57,501 bases of DNA from Nitrospirae bacterium MYbin3 (GTDB lineage Bacteria; Nitrospirota; Thermodesulfovibrionia; Thermodesulfovibrionales; Dissulfurispiraceae), in contig PEAD01000020.1 of assembly GCA_002753335.1 (NCBI GenBank), forward strand, positions 1 to 57,501, read 5' to 3'. Shown here in pieces: positions 22,285 through 29,436 of the stretch. A program made the position numbers and the translations under genes. Numbering within the stretch: the stretch's first letter is position 1; each line of letters opens with the position of its first letter. Under the pieces are notes generated by a model. It saw only the letters and a program-made list of their open reading frames with translations, was not told where the DNA came from and did not search any database.

Positions 22285-22491
22285 TCACCATCTGCTTATT
22301 ATCCTGAGAATAATAGCTTCATTAGGACAATTCTCGGCCGCTCTCGTCAACCGCACATCCTCATCCTGAATAGGGTAAGAAACCGAAGATTTCTCGCCCT
22401 TTATCGAAAAAACTTCGGATGCTCTAGAGGTGCAGGCCCCGCATCCCACGCATTTTTTAGTGTCTATTTTTATACTGACTTTACGCGCCAA
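22285..22491 (-). CDS. Small single-cluster ferredoxin
   Basis: CVGCGAC...AENCP motif. Confidence 0.75.
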   Translation of the reverse strand: MARKVSIKIDTKKCVGCGACTSRASEVFSIKGEKSSVSYPIQDEDVRLTRAAENCPNEAIILRIISRW

Positions 22492-22493
22492 AG
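22436..22493. repeat. 58-bp direct repeat, copy 1 (5' end of the ferredoxin gene)
   Basis: 56/58 identical to 23287-23344. Confidence 0.9.
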
Positions 22494-22729
22494 CTGTTTT
22501 AGTTGTCTATATTTGTCGGGCATCCAGTAAAAAACACAAAGACTTATAGATTCCCGCTCAACGCACTAAAAAAAGTATGGACTATAGATGCGGGAATGAC
22601 GTAAGTCGTTATTTTGAGACTGTTAATAATTGTACCACAAAAATCACAGGGCCTTCGGCTGCTGATTCCATAACATTAAAATATTTTATTTTTGCCCTTT
22701 CAGAAAAATCTCTATGCTATAATATTTTT

Positions 22730-22945
22730 ATGAATACTGCCGCTGAACTCGACAGCATCACAGAGATACTTGCTAAAATGCCCGAATCGGTGTTGCAGGA
22801 AGTTAGAGACTTCGCCTTTTATCTTGCAGACCGAGAACGCAGAAGAAATGCGCTTATCAAAAGGGTGCAAGAGGCAGAGGCATCAGCTCCAACACGATAC
22901 GATTCTGTTGATGATGCGGTAAATGCAGTATTTGATGAAGTTTAA
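22730..22945 (+). CDS. Putative antitoxin (small acidic protein)
   Basis: MNTAAELDSITEILAKMPESVLQEVRDFAFYL; overlaps the downstream toxin; TGcTATAAT ends 6 nt before the ATG (possibly leaderless). Confidence 0.7.
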   Translation: MNTAAELDSITEILAKMPESVLQEVRDFAFYLADRERRRNALIKRVQEAEASAPTRYDSVDDAVNAVFDEV

Positions 22946-23204
22946 ATTTGACTACGCACCGGCATATCTTAAAAACGCACGCAAGCTCGCTAAAAAATAT
23001 CCTCAACTAAAAAAGACCTACACAGAAGTTCTGTATAAACTTGCAGAAAATCCCTTTAATCCGCAACTGCACACGCATCCGCTTACAGGAGAACTTAAGG
23101 GTAAATATGCCTGCTCTCTGACTTATGAACTTCGCATTGTTTTCAAGCTGAATGAGGATGTTGTCCACTTGCTTGATATAGGCTCACACGACGAGGTTTA
23201 TTGA
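22935..23204 (+). CDS. YafQ/RelE-superfamily mRNA interferase toxin
   Basis: LHTHPLTGELKG...LRIVF...LLDIGSHDEVY. Confidence 0.85.
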   Translation: MKFKFDYAPAYLKNARKLAKKYPQLKKTYTEVLYKLAENPFNPQLHTHPLTGELKGKYACSLTYELRIVFKLNEDVVHLLDIGSHDEVY

Positions 23205-23282
23205 TACGAGTTACGATTATTCTGTCATACACGAATGCCTTTGTCGGGCATCCGTGTATCTAAAGAGAACCGTGCCCTTTAA

Positions 23283-23344
23283 TTAAGCCCCGCATCCTAC
23301 GCATTTTTTAGTGTCTATTTTTATGCTGACTTTACGCGCCAAAG
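23283..23344 (-). repeat. 58-bp direct repeat, copy 2: truncated ferredoxin 5' end (19 codons then TAA)
   Basis: MARKVSIKIDTKKCVGCGA* preceded by an AGGAGA RBS. Confidence 0.85.
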
Positions 23345-23544
23345 TTGCTCTCCTGCTAAACTTTTTTTCCTTTAGGCTCACAGGGCCTTCGGCTGTTGCC
23401 TACCGACCCCGCTTGCCTTTGTGCTTTTTGCCCTATGAAATACCGTTGCTTTTAATTTCACGGGGGCAGGACAGCGGTCTGGACACATCGCGCACTGACC
23501 GTGCATCCTTAAACGCAGCGGTTCGCGCTTGTTAATGATGTGTG

Positions 23545-23670
23545 CTGGCGAGGCGGAAGCCAAGATTGTTGTTCCTGTTGTCCGGATTGTTGTTGTTGCG
23601 ATTGGCTGAGCGAACATTCCTCGCGTTGTTGTTCCAGCTGCCGCCACGATTCACCCGGTTGGAGCCGCTC
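23545..23670 (-). repeat. DGR template repeat (TR)
   Basis: Ungapped 126-bp match to 25950-26075; 15 AAC/AAT codons in the target frame ([41 protein letters not shown]). Confidence 0.95.
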
Positions 23671-24688
23671 TCCGACCGCTGCCCGTATTAGCAAAAAGCC
23701 TTTTCCTTAAATTCAGTGAATCAGCAAACCCCGCAAACCCTATTATGCTCGCAAGGCTCATGCTGTATTTATCTTCGTCAATAAGTCCTCGCCTGAACTC
23801 ATTTTCCCTCTGCCTGATTTTGGCCTTGAGCCGTTTGATGTTCTCACTTTTGATACGAAGTAGCGACGGAAACACCCTGAAACCAAGAAACGGCAATCCG
23901 TTCAGCCTCGAATTTATCATGGTTGCGGAGTCTTTCAGTTTAAGACACAGACGCTGCTCAAGGAAATTCTCAGACAGTTTCAAAAGTTCTTTTAAACGCT
24001 CTTTGTCGTCAGAGAATATAACGCAGTCGTCCATGTAGCGAAGATACGCTTTGCAGCCAAGTTCGTCTTTTATGTAGTGGTCAAAGGCATCGAGATAAAC
24101 ATTCGCAAAAAACTGGCTTGTCAGATTACCGATAGGCAAGCCCTTGCCCGTCTGCTCTCCCCTGCTCGCGTCATTGTTGGCGACTATTATTTTTATCAGA
24201 TCAAGCAACCTTTTGTCCTTTATCTTTCTTTCAATGAGTCCGATCAGAACACTGTGATCCATGCTCTCGAAGTATTTATTGATATCGAATTTCAGATAAT
24301 AGCGGTTCTTGCGCATGAACTCCTGCGCCCTTCTGACGCATTTGTGCGTGCCCTTTTCCTTTCGAGTGGCGTAGGAATCATAGATAAACACCCTTTCAAA
24401 TATCGGCTCAAGAGCAGCAACTACAGAGTGGTGCACTACCCTGTCCCTGAAAGAAGCTACGCTTATCGTCCTTTCCTTAGGCTCATATACCTGAAAATAA
24501 CGGTACTTGTCTGGCCGGTAGATACCGTTTAACAGCTCACGCTGTAATTCAAAAAGTAGGTGTTCAAGCTCAAACTCAAAGGCGCATGCTTCTTCGGTTT
24601 TACCGCTGCCTCTCATCGCCTTTTTGAAAGCTCGATACAAGCTTTCAAATGTGCAGACCTTTTCAAACAGGTTTCCGGTTCTTTTCAT
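23651..24688 (-). CDS. DGR reverse transcriptase
   Basis: [43 protein letters not shown]; 345 aa with no maturase or endonuclease tail. Confidence 0.95.
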
Positions 24689-25019
24689 GCGCCGATTTCC
24701 TCCATCCGCCCACCATAACTCCGGTTTCGTTCAGTTCCCTGCTGATGAACTCGTACTGACTGGATGAGAGGTATTTTCTGTTGAATGATATTCTGAAAAG
24801 AACTCTCAGTTTTTCTATATATAGGTTCAACTTATCCAATATATACGCCCTGTCTTTGCTATATATAGCCTCAATTATGCCTTCGGTTATGTCCAAAGAA
24901 AGGTTTGCTATCCTGTCCGAGAAGCTGAAACGCACACTTTTGGGGAAGCTGTCTGTCCTGTCGAGTATCCAGTCCTGCACCGAAAGCCATTTGTTGAAAA
25001 CAGGGTAGTCCTTGTTCAT
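24663..25019 (-). CDS. avd: DGR accessory variability determinant (four-helix bundle)
   Basis: FPKSVRFSFSDRI, LRVLFRIS, ETGVMVGGW; overlaps the RT start. Confidence 0.9.
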   Translation of the reverse strand: MNKDYPVFNKWLSVQDWILDRTDSFPKSVRFSFSDRIANLSLDITEGIIEAIYSKDRAYILDKLNLYIEKLRVLFRISFNRKYLSSSQYEFISRELNETGVMVGGWRKSAHEKNRKPV

Positions 25020-25029
25020 TTTCCCTTTT

Positions 25030-25053
25030 TGTCACATTGAGCCTGTCGAAGGG
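25030..25053 (+). repeat. REP-like palindromic repeat, copy A
   Basis: TGTCACATTGAGCCTGTCGAAGGG; contains the GIY-YIG stop codon. Confidence 0.75.
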
Positions 25054-25334
25054 CGTTTTTTCGACAACTCTATCAATCTTTCAAAATCCCCATTTATGAG
25101 AGACTCCTTCTTCCGTCTTGACCAGCCTTTAATCTGTTTCTCCCTAGATATTGCTTCAACAACATCTCCAAACTCCTCAATATACATTAGGTTAACAGGT
25201 CGTTTCTCATGGGTATAACATCCTTTAATAATTCCCTCTTGATGCTCATAGAAACGCCTTTCAACATCATTGGTTACACCTGTATAATAGCTTCCGTCCG
25301 AGCATTGCAATATGTAAATGTAGTAGCTCTTCAT
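25032..25334 (-). CDS. Stand-alone GIY-YIG nuclease
   Basis: YYIYILQCSDGSYYTGVTND..RR..EH, AISREKQIKGWSRRKKE. Confidence 0.9.
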   Translation of the reverse strand: MKSYYIYILQCSDGSYYTGVTNDVERRFYEHQEGIIKGCYTHEKRPVNLMYIEEFGDVVEAISREKQIKGWSRRKKESLINGDFERLIELSKKRPSTGSM

Positions 25335-25350
25335 TTTTTATTTTCTATAT

Positions 25351-25423
25351 CGTCATCCTTCGACAAGCTCAGGATGACATTTTCAGCTGGCTCACCACTG
25401 TCACCCTGAGCTTGTCGAAGGGG
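25351..25423. repeat. Inverted pair of REP-like repeats (copies B and C)
   Basis: CGTCATCCTTCGACAAGCTCAGGATGACA, 19 nt, TGTCACCCTGAGCTTGTCGAAGGG. Confidence 0.85.
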
Positions 25424-25850
25424 CGTAAAAAGTCCTGATCATCTCCGTAACAGCGGCGCCGTATTTTTCGATCTTTTTCTTTCCAAAGCCTCTGATGGCC
25501 TTCAATGCCTCAAGGCTGCGGGGCGTGTTCTTGATAATATCCTTAAGTTCCCTGTTGGTTGCCACTATATATGTCGGCACGCCTTCTTTCTCTGCCTGTT
25601 CCCTGCGCCATTGCTTGAGCCGGTCAAACAGCAGCTTTTCGGCTTCATTCATGCCTTCGTGTTCGCCGCCTTCAGCCTTTTCAAGCACAGTATCGTACTC
25701 GAGAAACACCGTCCAGCTTGGGTTTCCTTCGTGGATAAAAAATTCTGTCCTAAAACTTTTCACCTGCTTGTTAAGGCAGAAATCGTTCAGTATTTCCTCG
25801 CTGAACGATTTGGTTGCAGAATCATAGGGTATGGTCAGTATTTTAAACAT
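25401..25850 (-). CDS. HRDC-domain DGR accessory protein
   Basis: LFDRLKQWRREQAEKEGVPTYIVATNRELKDI...IRGFGKKKIEKYG. Confidence 0.88.
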   Translation of the reverse strand: MFKILTIPYDSATKSFSEEILNDFCLNKQVKSFRTEFFIHEGNPSWTVFLEYDTVLEKAEGGEHEGMNEAEKLLFDRLKQWRREQAEKEGVPTYIVATNRELKDIIKNTPRSLEALKAIRGFGKKKIEKYGAAVTEMIRTFYAPSTSSG

Positions 25851-25867
25851 GGCTTAAAGACAAAGAC

Positions 25868-25887
25868 TGCGGGGCTCTGCCCCTGCA
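25868..25887 (-). other. GC-rich hairpin downstream of the VR (candidate DGR cis-acting stem-loop)
   Basis: Minus strand TGC-A-GGGGC-AGA-GCCCC-GCA, about 52 nt after the target stop. Confidence 0.55.
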
Positions 25888-25939
25888 CCCCGAAAGAATA
25901 TAAAAAACAGCAAAAGGTAAAAAGGTAAGAATCCAAAAA

Positions 25940-26968
25940 CTAAGGAGTCCTGGCGAGGCGGATGCCAAGAAAGCCGTACCTGTAGCCCGGATTGTCGAAG
26001 TTGCGAAGGGCTGACCGAACAAACCCCGCGTTGTCGTCCCAGCTGCCGCCACGATACACCCGGTAGGAGCCGCTCGAAGGCCCCGTAGGATTGTTCCTCG
26101 GACTGTTGCTGTAATAATTATCTGCCTTCCAGTCCTGCACCCATTCCCATACATTGCCGCTCATATCATATATACCGAGTCCGTTCGGCGCTTTTGTTCC
26201 AACCTGATGCGTCTTGCTGCCGGAGTTTGAACTATACCACGCTACACTGTCAACATCATTGCCACCGGAATATTTCTCGCTCTTGCCTCCACTCCTTGCA
26301 GCATATTCCCATTCGGCTTCTGTAGGCAATCTGTATTTGCCGCCGCCTGAACGGCTGTTTAGTCTGCTTATAAATTCCTGAACATCATTCCAACTGACAT
26401 TCTCCACAGGGCAGTTATCGCCGCAGTTCTTGAAGTGCGATGGATTATTTCCCATCACCGCCTGCCATTGCCCTTGTGTCACTTCATACTTGCCTATGTA
26501 ATAATCATCTACACAAACCTCATGCACAGGCTTTTCATCATCGTAACATTCACTCGTCCAGCTTCCGCATCCCATCTGATAACAGCCGCCTTTGACAAAC
26601 ACAAGCTCCATGCCGGTCGCAGAGTCTTTGATGAGCTTGCCGCCTGCAACAACCTCAAAATCGGCGCTTCCTGAATAGCCGCGCGAAAAGTCCTGAAGCA
26701 CATTCCAATATATCTTCTTTTTCTTTCCTGTTTTTGTCTTGCCGTAATCTCCTGTAAGATGCAGCTTTTCTGCGGAATAGTCCCTGCCCTTGACGGTTAT
26801 CGTAACGCTCACCTCGGCATCTTCATTGTATTCGCCCTCAAGGTCGTATTCCATAAGCATGCGGTTGCCCTGCTGCCGGACATCGAGGTTCTTGACCTCT
26901 GCGGCAAAGGATAGACCGCACACTAATATGGACATAATTAAAAATGCGAAGAGTTTTACAGATTTCAC
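25940..26968 (-). CDS. DGR target: secreted protein with C-terminal FGE-sulfatase (C-type lectin fold) domain
   Basis: Signal peptide; YEVTQ, RLPTEAEWEYAAR, NGLGIYDMSGNVWEW, RGGSW; VR at the C-terminus. Confidence 0.93.
   Translation of the reverse strand: MKSVKLFAFLIMSILVCGLSFAAEVKNLDVRQQGNRMLMEYDLEGEYNEDAEVSVTITVKGRDYSAEKLHLTGDYGKTKTGKKKKIYWNVLQDFSRGYSGSADFEVVAGGKLIKDSATGMELVFVKGGCYQMGCGSWTSECYDDEKPVHEVCVDDYYIGKYEVTQGQWQAVMGNNPSHFKNCGDNCPVENVSWNDVQEFISRLNSRSGGGKYRLPTEAEWEYAARSGGKSEKYSGGNDVDSVAWYSSNSGSKTHQVGTKAPNGLGIYDMSGNVWEWVQDWKADNYYSNSPRNNPTGPSSGSYRVYRGGSWDDNAGFVRSALRNFDNPGYRYGFLGIRLARTP
25950..26075 (-). repeat. DGR variable repeat (VR)
   Basis: 105/126 identical to the TR; 19 of 21 differences at TR adenines. 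Confidence 0.95.
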
Positions 26969-27243
26969 TTGTATGCCCCTCCACGATGATCTATTTCATA
27001 AACATAAAGCTCACCGGTATTCCTGTCAATTTTAAAAATGATACGAACATTACCGAGCCTCATTCTCATAAAACCCTTCCATTGTCCTTCGAGAGATTTT
27101 ATCTGGAGCTCTCTGAAAGGGACTATTCCCTGTTCGTCCACAGACAATGCAAGCCTTTTGATTTTAGTTCTGATTCGCTCACGAGTTGCATCATCTGAAC
27201 CTATAATGAACTTCTCGGCCTGTCTGCTGAACTTTAATTTCAC
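26965..27243 (-). CDS. RelE/ParE-family toxin
   Basis: IKSLEGQWKGFMRMRLGNVRIIF...EIDHRGGAYK. Confidence 0.85.
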   Translation of the reverse strand: MKLKFSRQAEKFIIGSDDATRERIRTKIKRLALSVDEQGIVPFRELQIKSLEGQWKGFMRMRLGNVRIIFKIDRNTGELYVYEIDHRGGAYK

Positions 27244-27443
27244 TTCATTACCCAGTCTGTCATGTCTTTAAAATCAGATTTTTTGTATTTGGCCGGAGTG
27301 CCGTAATTACCCTCTATCTCTTGCATCTCTTTCTTTGATACCGGCGGAACCAAAACCTCATATAACCCTAACCGCTCTTCGCGTATTGCATCACGAACAC
27401 TCTCCCTGATTATTTTTCTCAATACCTTTTCAGCAACTACCAT
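27240..27443 (-). CDS. Putative antitoxin
   Basis: Small gene overlapping the toxin start; AGAGGAGG RBS before MVVAEK. Confidence 0.65.
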   Translation of the reverse strand: MVVAEKVLRKIIRESVRDAIREERLGLYEVLVPPVSKKEMQEIEGNYGTPAKYKKSDFKDMTDWVMK

Positions 27444-27540
27444 TTGATTGCCTCCTCTGTAAAATATGCCCTGTTCCGCCTTTGAAAAATCATATTCTTT
27501 TTTCATATCAACTCATTCACCCTTCCAAGCTTCTACCCTT

Positions 27541-29241
27541 TTACTTCTTCAAAGTCACTATTACATCCGAGTCATGGCCGTTAACTACCGGCTCCTGCTC
27601 TCTGTTGTTCAGCCTGCCTGCCATGTACGGCACATGCTCTTTAAGATAGCTCCTGAGTTCGGCAATGGTTATTTTTTTGTCGCTGTTCTTGTCAGCTTCG
27701 CCCTGCAAGGCCTTGAAGAAATAATAGGTGAAAAGCGAATGCTTCATGTCCGGATACCAGTTTGAGACCTGCCCTATGGCCGCGCTGGTTATTATCACCG
27801 CGTTTGACGGCCCCCGATATTCCTTCTTCACCTGAACCATTGCGGGGCTCATGTTCTTAAAGAGCATTCCAACAGGAGAGTTGCCCGAAAAACAGGAGTC
27901 TAAAACTATCGTCATTTTTTTTGCATGCACCTTCGAGAGGTTGTTGTAAAAGGTCTGGAGTTTGTAGCCGTTTGCCTTTATGAATTCGGGATTCGCGTCA
28001 ACAGGCACAAAATAGGCCTCTGTGCTGTCAAGATCCGGCGCGCCGTGGCCGGCGTAATAAATAAACACCTTTGACGCACCGCTCTTTACAAATTTGTAGA
28101 GCCTGCCCTTGGGATCGTTTTCGGTTCCGAAGAGTTCATTGAATTTAGCAACCGTAGCGTCCTCGGCATAAAGTATGTTCATAGGGTCATAGCCGAAGGT
28201 CTTTATAAGATACTCCTTCATGATGCGTGCGTCCCTGTCCGCAAATTCCACATTCGGAAGGCCTGAGGCCGAATAGTTCCTGTTGCCGATTATCACGGCA
28301 ACATCGTACTTGCCCGCCTTTTCGCCTTCGGGTATCTTGGTCTCTACATCTATGCTCAAGCCGCCCGCAGTCTGGATTTCATCTTTTTTACCTGTGTCCT
28401 CCGGCATTACCACAACAGGCCCAGCAATGCTTTTCTGCTGGGCATTCATCACCAGTTTGAGCGGTTCGGATTTGCCGAACTTCGGTCTGGACTCGTTTAT
28501 CTGAACCGTAAGAGGGATCTTCTCTCCAGCCTGAATGCGGGTGTTGGTATAGAACATAAACTTCAGATCTTTGAATTTGCCGGAGCGGATTGCGCCTATG
28601 TCAAAATGGGTGTGTCCGTCTCCTCCCATAAACACATTGTCCCCGGGCTTAATGTCAACCGATACTTCCCGCGCATCTCCGTAGCCCTTGTTCTGTACCC
28701 TGACCGTCAGCTCAACTATTTCCATAGGCTCGACCTTGCCGTTTCCGTTCTGGTCGTTAACCCCTATGTCAGCCACAATCAGCATTGGCGGCTCAAAAGC
28801 CTTTGTGCTGAAGGCTATACCCGGATGTTTTAAATCGAAACCATTAGCCTCTTTAAGAGCGATGCCAAAAACTGCCCTGCCTGAGAGAATTTCTTCGTCC
28901 GCTGCAAGCTCTATCTCCTTGGTAATACTCTGCCCTGCGCCAATCGTGCCTAAGCTTATGTCCCTGTCAAAGCGCAGGCCTTCTATCCGTCTGTCAGGTT
29001 TAATCTCTGCCCTCACATCAAAGGCATCGCCTGATCCGCTGTTTTTTATTTCGAGTATAAGCCTTCCGGTTTCGCCAGCATCAAGAATGTTGTTGCCGGA
29101 TGGCTCATTGAATTTTACGGTCGCAGACAGGTTCGGCGGCGCTGGAAATACATTGACATTCGCAGACCTCTTTTCGGCAAAACCTTCTGCCGCAGAGATC
29201 AGCAATGCCGCACAAACAAAAACAAGCAATTCCCTCTTCAT
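27541..29241 (-). CDS. Secreted caspase-family (peptidase C14) protein with N-terminal beta-sandwich domains
   Basis: Signal peptide MKRELLVFVCAALLISAAEGFA; catalytic dyad IYYAGHG and LDSCFSG; D/N-rich loops (SGNNILDAGE, NGNGKVEPME). Confidence 0.85.
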   Translation of the reverse strand: MKRELLVFVCAALLISAAEGFAEKRSANVNVFPAPPNLSATVKFNEPSGNNILDAGETGRLILEIKNSGSGDAFDVRAEIKPDRRIEGLRFDRDISLGTIGAGQSITKEIELAADEEILSGRAVFGIALKEANGFDLKHPGIAFSTKAFEPPMLIVADIGVNDQNGNGKVEPMEIVELTVRVQNKGYGDAREVSVDIKPGDNVFMGGDGHTHFDIGAIRSGKFKDLKFMFYTNTRIQAGEKIPLTVQINESRPKFGKSEPLKLVMNAQQKSIAGPVVVMPEDTGKKDEIQTAGGLSIDVETKIPEGEKAGKYDVAVIIGNRNYSASGLPNVEFADRDARIMKEYLIKTFGYDPMNILYAEDATVAKFNELFGTENDPKGRLYKFVKSGASKVFIYYAGHGAPDLDSTEAYFVPVDANPEFIKANGYKLQTFYNNLSKVHAKKMTIVLDSCFSGNSPVGMLFKNMSPAMVQVKKEYRGPSNAVIITSAAIGQVSNWYPDMKHSLFTYYFFKALQGEADKNSDKKITIAELRSYLKEHVPYMAGRLNNREQEPVVNGHDSDVIVTLKK

Positions 29242-29436
29242 ATCAATACCTCCCACAGGTAACGGCTTGCAGAATATTAGCATTTTGTTAATGTCATGTA
29301 AAGGTAATTTTCACATTAATTCGGCACATTCGCTTGCTGTACACAAAATATTTTTTAGGGTATAATTATCAAAATATCAAAATCACCTTATAATCACAAA
29401 ATCACCAGCAACCAAAAAAAATCGTAGGAGGAAGCC

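Follow-up and report, generated by a model that had tools for sequence, protein, structure and literature searches.

The 57,501-nt stretch of DNA that we analysed (the window; contig PEAD01000020.1, positions 1-57,501, of assembly GCA_002753335.1 from Nitrospirae bacterium MYbin3) carries a diversity-generating retroelement (DGR) whose target, a protein with a signal peptide, is encoded close to a secreted caspase-like protease. The assembly (genome G000) comprises 66 contigs and is 93.7% complete; the other G-numbers used below denote genomes of the class Thermodesulfovibrionia, 301 of which were compared, L-numbers denote related loci and C-numbers contigs. Read along the minus strand, the order is secreted caspase-like gene, antitoxin-like gene, RelE/ParE toxin, target, hrdc, GIY-YIG, avd, reverse transcriptase (RT) and template repeat (TR), the TR overlapping the final 20 bp of the RT gene (Table 1). 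The cassette has phosphate transport, thiamine, hydrogenase and cbb3 oxidase genes as neighbours, and the named proteins clustering with CcoN are from Thermodesulfovibrionia/Nitrospirota, which fixes the host's place. None of the 47 window proteins scanned had a match to phage families for heads, tails or packaging. This agrees with the initial annotation, which saw no phage genes nearby: the DGR is chromosomal and cellular, not a prophage.

The gap-free alignment of the TR with the variable repeat (VR) spans 126 bp and contains 21 mismatches, of which 19 are at TR adenines. The changes from TR to VR are 11 A>T, 7 A>G, 1 A>C, 1 C>G and 1 T>A, so that 19 of the 37 TR adenines differ as against 2 of the 89 other bases (Fisher p=1.6e-10). 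The C>G difference, at TR 23610, is silent (Arg318), and the T>A difference, at TR 23558, gives Phe336Ile. Twelve of the 15 AAY codons have changed, four to Tyr and three to Phe; the changed adenines fall at codon position 1 (13) or 2 (6) and none elsewhere. All these counts reproduce those of the initial annotation where it gave them, and its figure of about 4e17 variants is right as a ceiling (15^15 = 4.4e17 proteins from the AAY codons). The ceiling rises to about 2.5e20 when the other adenine codons inside the repeat are included, codon 298, which lies mostly outside it, being left out. An ungapped scan allowing at most 35 non-adenine mismatches, together with blastn, found no second VR in any of the 66 contigs. 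Three FGE (formylglycine-generating enzyme) paralogues, on C64, C37 and C20, were considered as remote targets and rejected, as they had no match to the TR, and the exact 28-base TR pattern had no match in metagenome contigs. At L022 (C20:4666-8364), a locus of which only the FGE gene was scanned, lies an FGE/CLec (lectin-fold) paralogue with a zinc ribbon; the genes before it look like vWA, PP2C-like phosphatase and kinase genes, which we take to be a TerY-P triad.

The protein components are those of a DGR. In a tree of 41 RTs, the MYbin3 RT fell inside a 98/99 clade with all 10 RTs from HRDC-flagged loci, and a long 100/99 branch split this clade from nine group II-like and other RTs. Its best PDB match was 8ub7 (E 5.8e-54, versus 8.5e-32 for a group II RT), which we take to be the Bordetella DGR RT, although the entry listing says only 'Reverse transcriptase'. 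The initial annotation had held that clustering with group II introns or retrons would refute the DGR assignment; no such grouping was seen. The RT motifs that it noted are present, its avd call is borne out by NCBIfam NF033474 (95.2 bits, cut-off 80) and its hrdc call by PF00570, and this HRDC gene is kept in 10 related loci. The RT, Avd and HRDC reading frames look intact. We regard it as practically certain that this is a genuine DGR. It is of an already known, Treponema-like kind (architecture C, FGE/CLec1 target), and the retroelement itself is ordinary. Among six candidate RT relatives in viral contigs, none was confirmed. Other retroelements were encountered along the way: a second, group II intron-like RT with a YADD motif in MYbin3 (C35:842-1639), a prophage-like DGR with a tail-type target in a genome of the same family (L018, G006:C9), and two non-HRDC DGRs with other targets (L016, L017) in G001, of the same genus.

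Table 1. The DGR cassette and its companion genes in the window
Feature	Position	Strand	Remarks
Secreted caspase-like protease	27541..29241	-	signal peptide, two Ig/CARDB-like domains, Peptidase_C14
Probable antitoxin	27240..27506	-	no family match; 67/88 residues identical to same-place gene in G019
RelE/ParE-type toxin	26965..27243	-	stop codon overlaps GTG start of target
DGR target, 342 aa	25940..26968	-	signal peptide 1-22, Ig/FnIII-like 22-111, FGE-sulfatase/CLec ~112-342
Variable repeat (VR)	25950..26075	-	target codons 298-340
End resembling an IMH (initiation of mutagenic homing) site	25940..25966	-	GC-rich stretch common to TR, then sequence unlike TR end
GC hairpin, 3-nt loop	25871..25883	-	~65 nt after VR
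HRDC accessory gene	25401..25850	-	PF00570; isoelectric point 6.8
REP-like palindrome, 23-bp arms	25357..25421		partial copy 25030-25053, opposite side of GIY-YIG gene
GIY-YIG nuclease	25032..25334	-	between hrdc and avd; dispensable passenger
Avd, 118 aa	24663..25019	-	NCBIfam NF033474; isoelectric point 9.5
DGR reverse transcriptase, 345 aa	23651..24688	-	GNLTSQ, YMDD
Template repeat (TR)	23545..23670	-	37 adenines, 15 AAY codons
IMH*/spacer stem-loop after TR	23481..23545	-	predicted fold same in L028; z about -2.1 each

The IMH differs from the IMH* in that the GC-rich VR end is followed by a tail unlike that of the TR, and this VR-specific tail is the same in L028. This nearest cassette, about 80% identical in DNA, keeps the IMH end, the TR stem-loop and the hairpin after the VR, the last as a 6-bp version with another loop base; in MYbin3 the hairpin has a z of -2.6 for a 39-nt stretch chosen around it. 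By sequence and by conservation with L028, the IMH/IMH* difference and the hairpin are putative cis elements of the DGR. The GIY-YIG gene is present in L028 and cleanly missing from the contig of a closer relative (run X1, below). DUF559 nucleases or 23S-IVP four-helix genes occupy similar places in L096, L101 and L095. Directly after the TR spacer lies a second toxin-antitoxin pair (DUF2281-like, 22730-22945; YafQ/RelE, 22935-23204) within 22436-23347, bracketed by two 61-bp direct repeats that are 95% identical and have no further copy in the genome; the pair looks like a duplication-flanked insertion. Rfam families had no match across the window, and promoter and terminator scans gave counts that did not stand above those of shuffles (10 versus 7.8 and 6 versus 5.6).

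The signal peptide of the target, judged from the sequence, requires the GTG start at 26968. An alternative database record begins at Met12, and the homologues carry the full signal and keep A22-A23-E24 (in at least 90% of them). Judged by eye, the sequence has no lipobox cysteine: Cys17 follows ILV and is absent from the conserved columns of the homologue alignment. Since strong hydrophobicity is confined to the signal region, the mature protein is expected to be soluble and, by default, periplasmic. The initial annotation's description of the target as secreted therefore holds as far as a Sec-type signal peptide. Residues 121-340 match PF03781, with the VR at the C-terminus inside the FGE/CLec fold, and the best structure for residues 112-342 was TvpA (Z 18.4, root-mean-square deviation 3.5 over 201 residues; sequence E 5e-43), to whose C-terminus the VR aligns without gaps. 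The lectin fold proposed at the outset is therefore upheld. The initial annotation missed the N-terminal Ig-like domain, as well as the caspase gene, which lies upstream of the interval 23545..26075 that it described. This domain forms an Ig/FnIII-like sandwich with Z 6-7 to many FnIII domains, a likeness of fold only, and had no match among 50,697 phage records. A search of representatives gave mostly multi-domain FGE repeats and brought nothing further.

The caspase-like protein, encoded 0.6 kb upstream of the target, has a His-Cys dyad (GHG, DSC) that is conserved across the aligned orthologues; its open reading frame could begin at 29283, and the homologues favour the start given in Table 1. 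Among the class genomes, the target's Ig domain gave 16 matches in 13 genomes and the caspase orthologue 12 matches in 11 genomes (E<=1e-80). Eleven of the 16 Ig-domain matches, in 10 of the 13 genomes including MYbin3, are no more than 5 kb away from the caspase or from its Ig part; G144, with a shorter caspase, and G030, where the neighbour is an Ig pair without C14, are below the caspase threshold and were counted as adjacent from a reading of their loci. We give these counts without a p-value, as kin genomes are not independent. In the caspase-holding genomes, none of 10 CLec genes without the Ig domain adjoins an Ig-Ig-caspase, and two of the 10 are themselves fused to another C14.

The caspase-target pair spans five families and several chromosomal sites. 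Its gene order varies, with the caspase upstream in G000, G019 and G201 and downstream in G119, G001, G093, G099, G041 and G144, and the Ig domain keeps its caspase neighbour when the C-terminal domain becomes Lcl_C, FKBP or CBM96. Direct C14-CLec fusions also occur (L028, L109, L110); the DGR of L028 acts on a signal peptide-C14-CLec fusion whose gene follows a DUF4384 gene. L106 (G199:C78:1314-4865), an HRDC-clade DGR with the same order, has a signal peptide-trypsin-CLec fusion as target (24 of 25 TR/VR mismatches at A) and would be another case of an exported protease tied to a variable CLec. DGRs of different lineages have become attached to the pair: in G119 a complete non-HRDC DGR (RT 47% identical, 21 of 21 mismatches at A) lies between target and caspase, and G019 has a DGR remnant with an Avd 35% identical. 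A DUF4384 gene is found within the corresponding loci of G019, G041, G119, G192 and L028. In G019 the order is iscU-DUF4384-caspase-same toxin-antitoxin pair-target-avd-dead RT-response regulator-valS; in MYbin3, DUF4384 abuts the response regulator on contig C8 and the caspase-toxin-antitoxin-target block is in the window. One of the two lineages has thus seen the block move. MYbin3 has further C14 matches on C39:12138-22393 (six in tandem), C27, C61, C52, C1 and C5, the N-termini of which are mostly signal-peptide or lipoprotein-like, suggesting an expansion of exported caspase-like proteins.

Across 73 homologues of the target, variability is highest at the columns of the 15 AAY positions, with an average of 3.09 bits versus 0.73 for the rest of the domain. 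In a Syntrophales cluster (15 of 18 members listed), the proteins are identical outside the VR and carry 11 different VRs, all 18 variable columns lying within residues 302-333; four other clusters have one or two VRs each. Depending on the population, the target family is thus either diversified or fixed. Two loci of the RT clade to which MYbin3 belongs, L030 and L031, do not differ in their TRs; they show 32 differences over 4.65 kb, and 30 of these fall in the VR. One DNA run, X1, contains a relative of the cassette (share 0.07) on a 2,398-bp contig with an RT 95% identical, Avd and HRDC; no RNA run was among those listed, a result without bearing on expression. The differences number 119/1,614 in RT/avd, 32/472 in hrdc and 39/266 in the target piece; among the differences listed, which do not include VR positions, none falls between 23534 and 23690. 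A fragment search did not recover the X1 target fragment. We consider it quite probable that the MYbin3 cassette is still competent. In P0011, a target homologue, the VR passes into sequence that matches what follows the TR, as would result from recombination between the two repeats with loss of the intervening cassette, or from a collapsed assembly.

Taken together, these observations lead us to favour, on balance, a reading in which an HRDC-type DGR alters the binding surface of an exported receptor with two domains, itself part of a sensor-protease module. In Bordetella, as set out in PMC5758913, RT-Avd reverse-transcribes the TR RNA and misreads adenines, and the VR is replaced by the cDNA starting at the IMH end; by analogy, the same would happen here. 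The target would be exported by Sec and, having no membrane anchor, would remain in the periplasm or be released. Its Ig-like domain would couple it to the co-encoded secreted Ig-Ig-caspase, with the DUF4384 protein as a third partner; a foreign protein captured on the variable CLec face would then cluster or activate the caspase, protease activation being the output. The target appears to be one half of such a module, and we think it somewhat probable that target and caspase act in one pathway. Direct Ig-Ig docking of the one on the other is a more tentative proposal, and a role in defence is possible at about the same level. The most likely ligands would be fast-changing foreign proteins at the cell envelope, from phage, predator or epibiont. 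More doubtful still is the broader idea of an extracytoplasmic, antibody-like surveillance module, in which a lectin-fold receptor diversified by a DGR would attach by its Ig-like part to the secreted Ig-Ig-caspase and a DUF4384 partner, the tips (FGE-CLec, Lcl_C, CBM96, FKBP) would be interchangeable, unrelated DGRs would have been recruited repeatedly for randomising the tip, and recognition of foreign proteins at the envelope would trigger proteolysis outside the cytoplasm.

Several observations weigh against the sensor-protease reading. When G144 and G030 are left out, the adjacency falls to 9 of 16 matches in 8 of 13 genomes. Five of the 16 Ig-domain matches are not beside a caspase at all (G192, which holds both genes apart, G008 twice, G120, and G001:C54, which ends at a contig break). 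In MYbin3 a toxin-antitoxin pair lies between the caspase and target genes, the DUF4384 orthologue sits on a different contig, and caspases are common, to judge by about a dozen other C14 matches. Further, the structural model is unreliable over residues 271-333 (pLDDT, the predicted local distance difference test, below 50), and the display of the variable residues on one face is therefore drawn from homology to TvpA (PMC4891356). As the genomes share ancestry and the block travels as a whole, common inheritance may explain the linkage. This is the core of the main rival, an ordinary cellular DGR acting on a stand-alone adhesin or substrate-binding protein, with the caspase no more than a neighbour inherited alongside it in a mobile block of genes for secreted proteins. 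Cellular DGR targets, TvpA included, are indeed mostly read as binders of extracellular substrates (bioRxiv 2020.04.01.020958), and, besides the Ig-domain genes without a caspase neighbour, the different chromosomal site of the block in G019 and the frequency of small nucleases and toxin-antitoxin genes inside these loci fit passive carriage. Co-inheritance accounts less well for the variation of gene order and spacing genes among loci, for the persistence of the pair while the C-terminal domain and the DGR are swapped, and for the direct C14-CLec fusions. We consider this rival somewhat unlikely.

A separate possibility, which we judge to be unlikely, is that the cassette is complete but silent and the VR a frozen record of past retrohoming. 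The comparison bearing on ongoing retrohoming covered contigs of a relative. The target protein has a single further database record, probably from the same assembly, and its VR is the same. Decay is common among kin, the L028 RT having lost 52 residues and G019 keeping only RT and TR remnants, and of the two non-adenine differences one alters a Phe kept in 68 of 73 homologues; differences of this class are, however, present in 23% of DGRs according to PMC5758913. All reading frames and cis elements look intact in MYbin3, and in the X1 relative the density of differences in the target piece, compared with about 7% elsewhere, together with the absence of any listed difference across the TR, argues against silence. 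The idea that the locus is the remnant of a prophage or of another retroelement (group II intron, retron), with a true formylglycine-generating enzyme as target, is largely refuted and very improbable. The best NCBIfam model for the RT was a group II RT/maturase, but at 153.9 bits it is below the cut-off of 300, and the RT tree, the 8ub7 match, the Avd score and the TR/VR pair all point to a DGR. FGE enzymes do occur among the structural matches of the target, yet its C-terminal region is hypervariable instead of conserved; the absence of phage structural families from the window and of the Ig domain from the phage records argues against a prophage.

What cellular DGR targets do is unsettled; neither a ligand nor an output is known for TvpA and related proteins. 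Cellular DGRs that bear HRDC and act on FGE targets with a signal peptide are already described in Treponema; of 372 DGRs in PMC5758913, 14 have HRDC, about half of those with avd, and 71 have FGE targets. Like the MYbin3 element, the Treponema denticola DGR (TvpA, PDB 2Y3C; architecture C, target category b in PMC5758913) is chromosomal, with an HRDC gene, a C-terminal VR in an FGE/CLec1 domain, an export signal and an unknown ligand. In contrast to it, MYbin3 has both avd and hrdc and one target only, T. denticola having remote targets; the MYbin3 target signal looks like a signal peptidase I type rather than a lipobox, and the protein has an extra N-terminal Ig-like domain and is linked to a secreted caspase. 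The Bordetella BPP-1 DGR shares TR/VR, RT, Avd, IMH/IMH* and the downstream hairpin, but has a phage tail target and no HRDC.

Also comparable are the DGR 'antigen sensors' of multicellular bacteria (PMC10907252) and the cyanobacterial orthocaspase-CLec targets (PMC7517822), in which, as in MYbin3, a variable CLec domain goes together with caspase-type or trypsin effectors, either fused to it or encoded nearby. Adaptor domains are proposed there to link sensor and effector, and an effector peptidase beside the target, a trait of the PMC10907252 conflict systems, is present here. As those sources present them, however, the targets are mostly cytoplasmic (in the cyanobacteria mostly cytosolic fusions) and accompanied by STAND or MoxR NTPases, whereas both MYbin3 partners carry signal peptides and no such NTPase was found among the open reading frames scanned around the cassette. 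Metacaspases with joined C14 and FGE domains (33 of 671 in PMC3501461, where many metacaspases have a likely signal peptide) were read there as an enzyme pair, with no DGR link, and the MYbin3 domains are on separate neighbouring genes. Our literature searches found no relevant paper on a DGR in Thermodesulfovibrio and no description of a split, fully exported caspase/CLec form with Ig domains, although supplementary DGR catalogues may already list the locus. The DGR type is known, and the split exported sensor-protease arrangement with Ig domains appears to be new. A conserved, catalytically intact-looking exported protease beside the target offers a candidate output that can be assayed by binding, activation or cleavage. 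With Ig-like domains as the candidate adaptors and a Nitrospirota bacterium as host, the arrangement would carry the sensor-effector concept of DGR targets beyond the cytoplasm, to the cell envelope.

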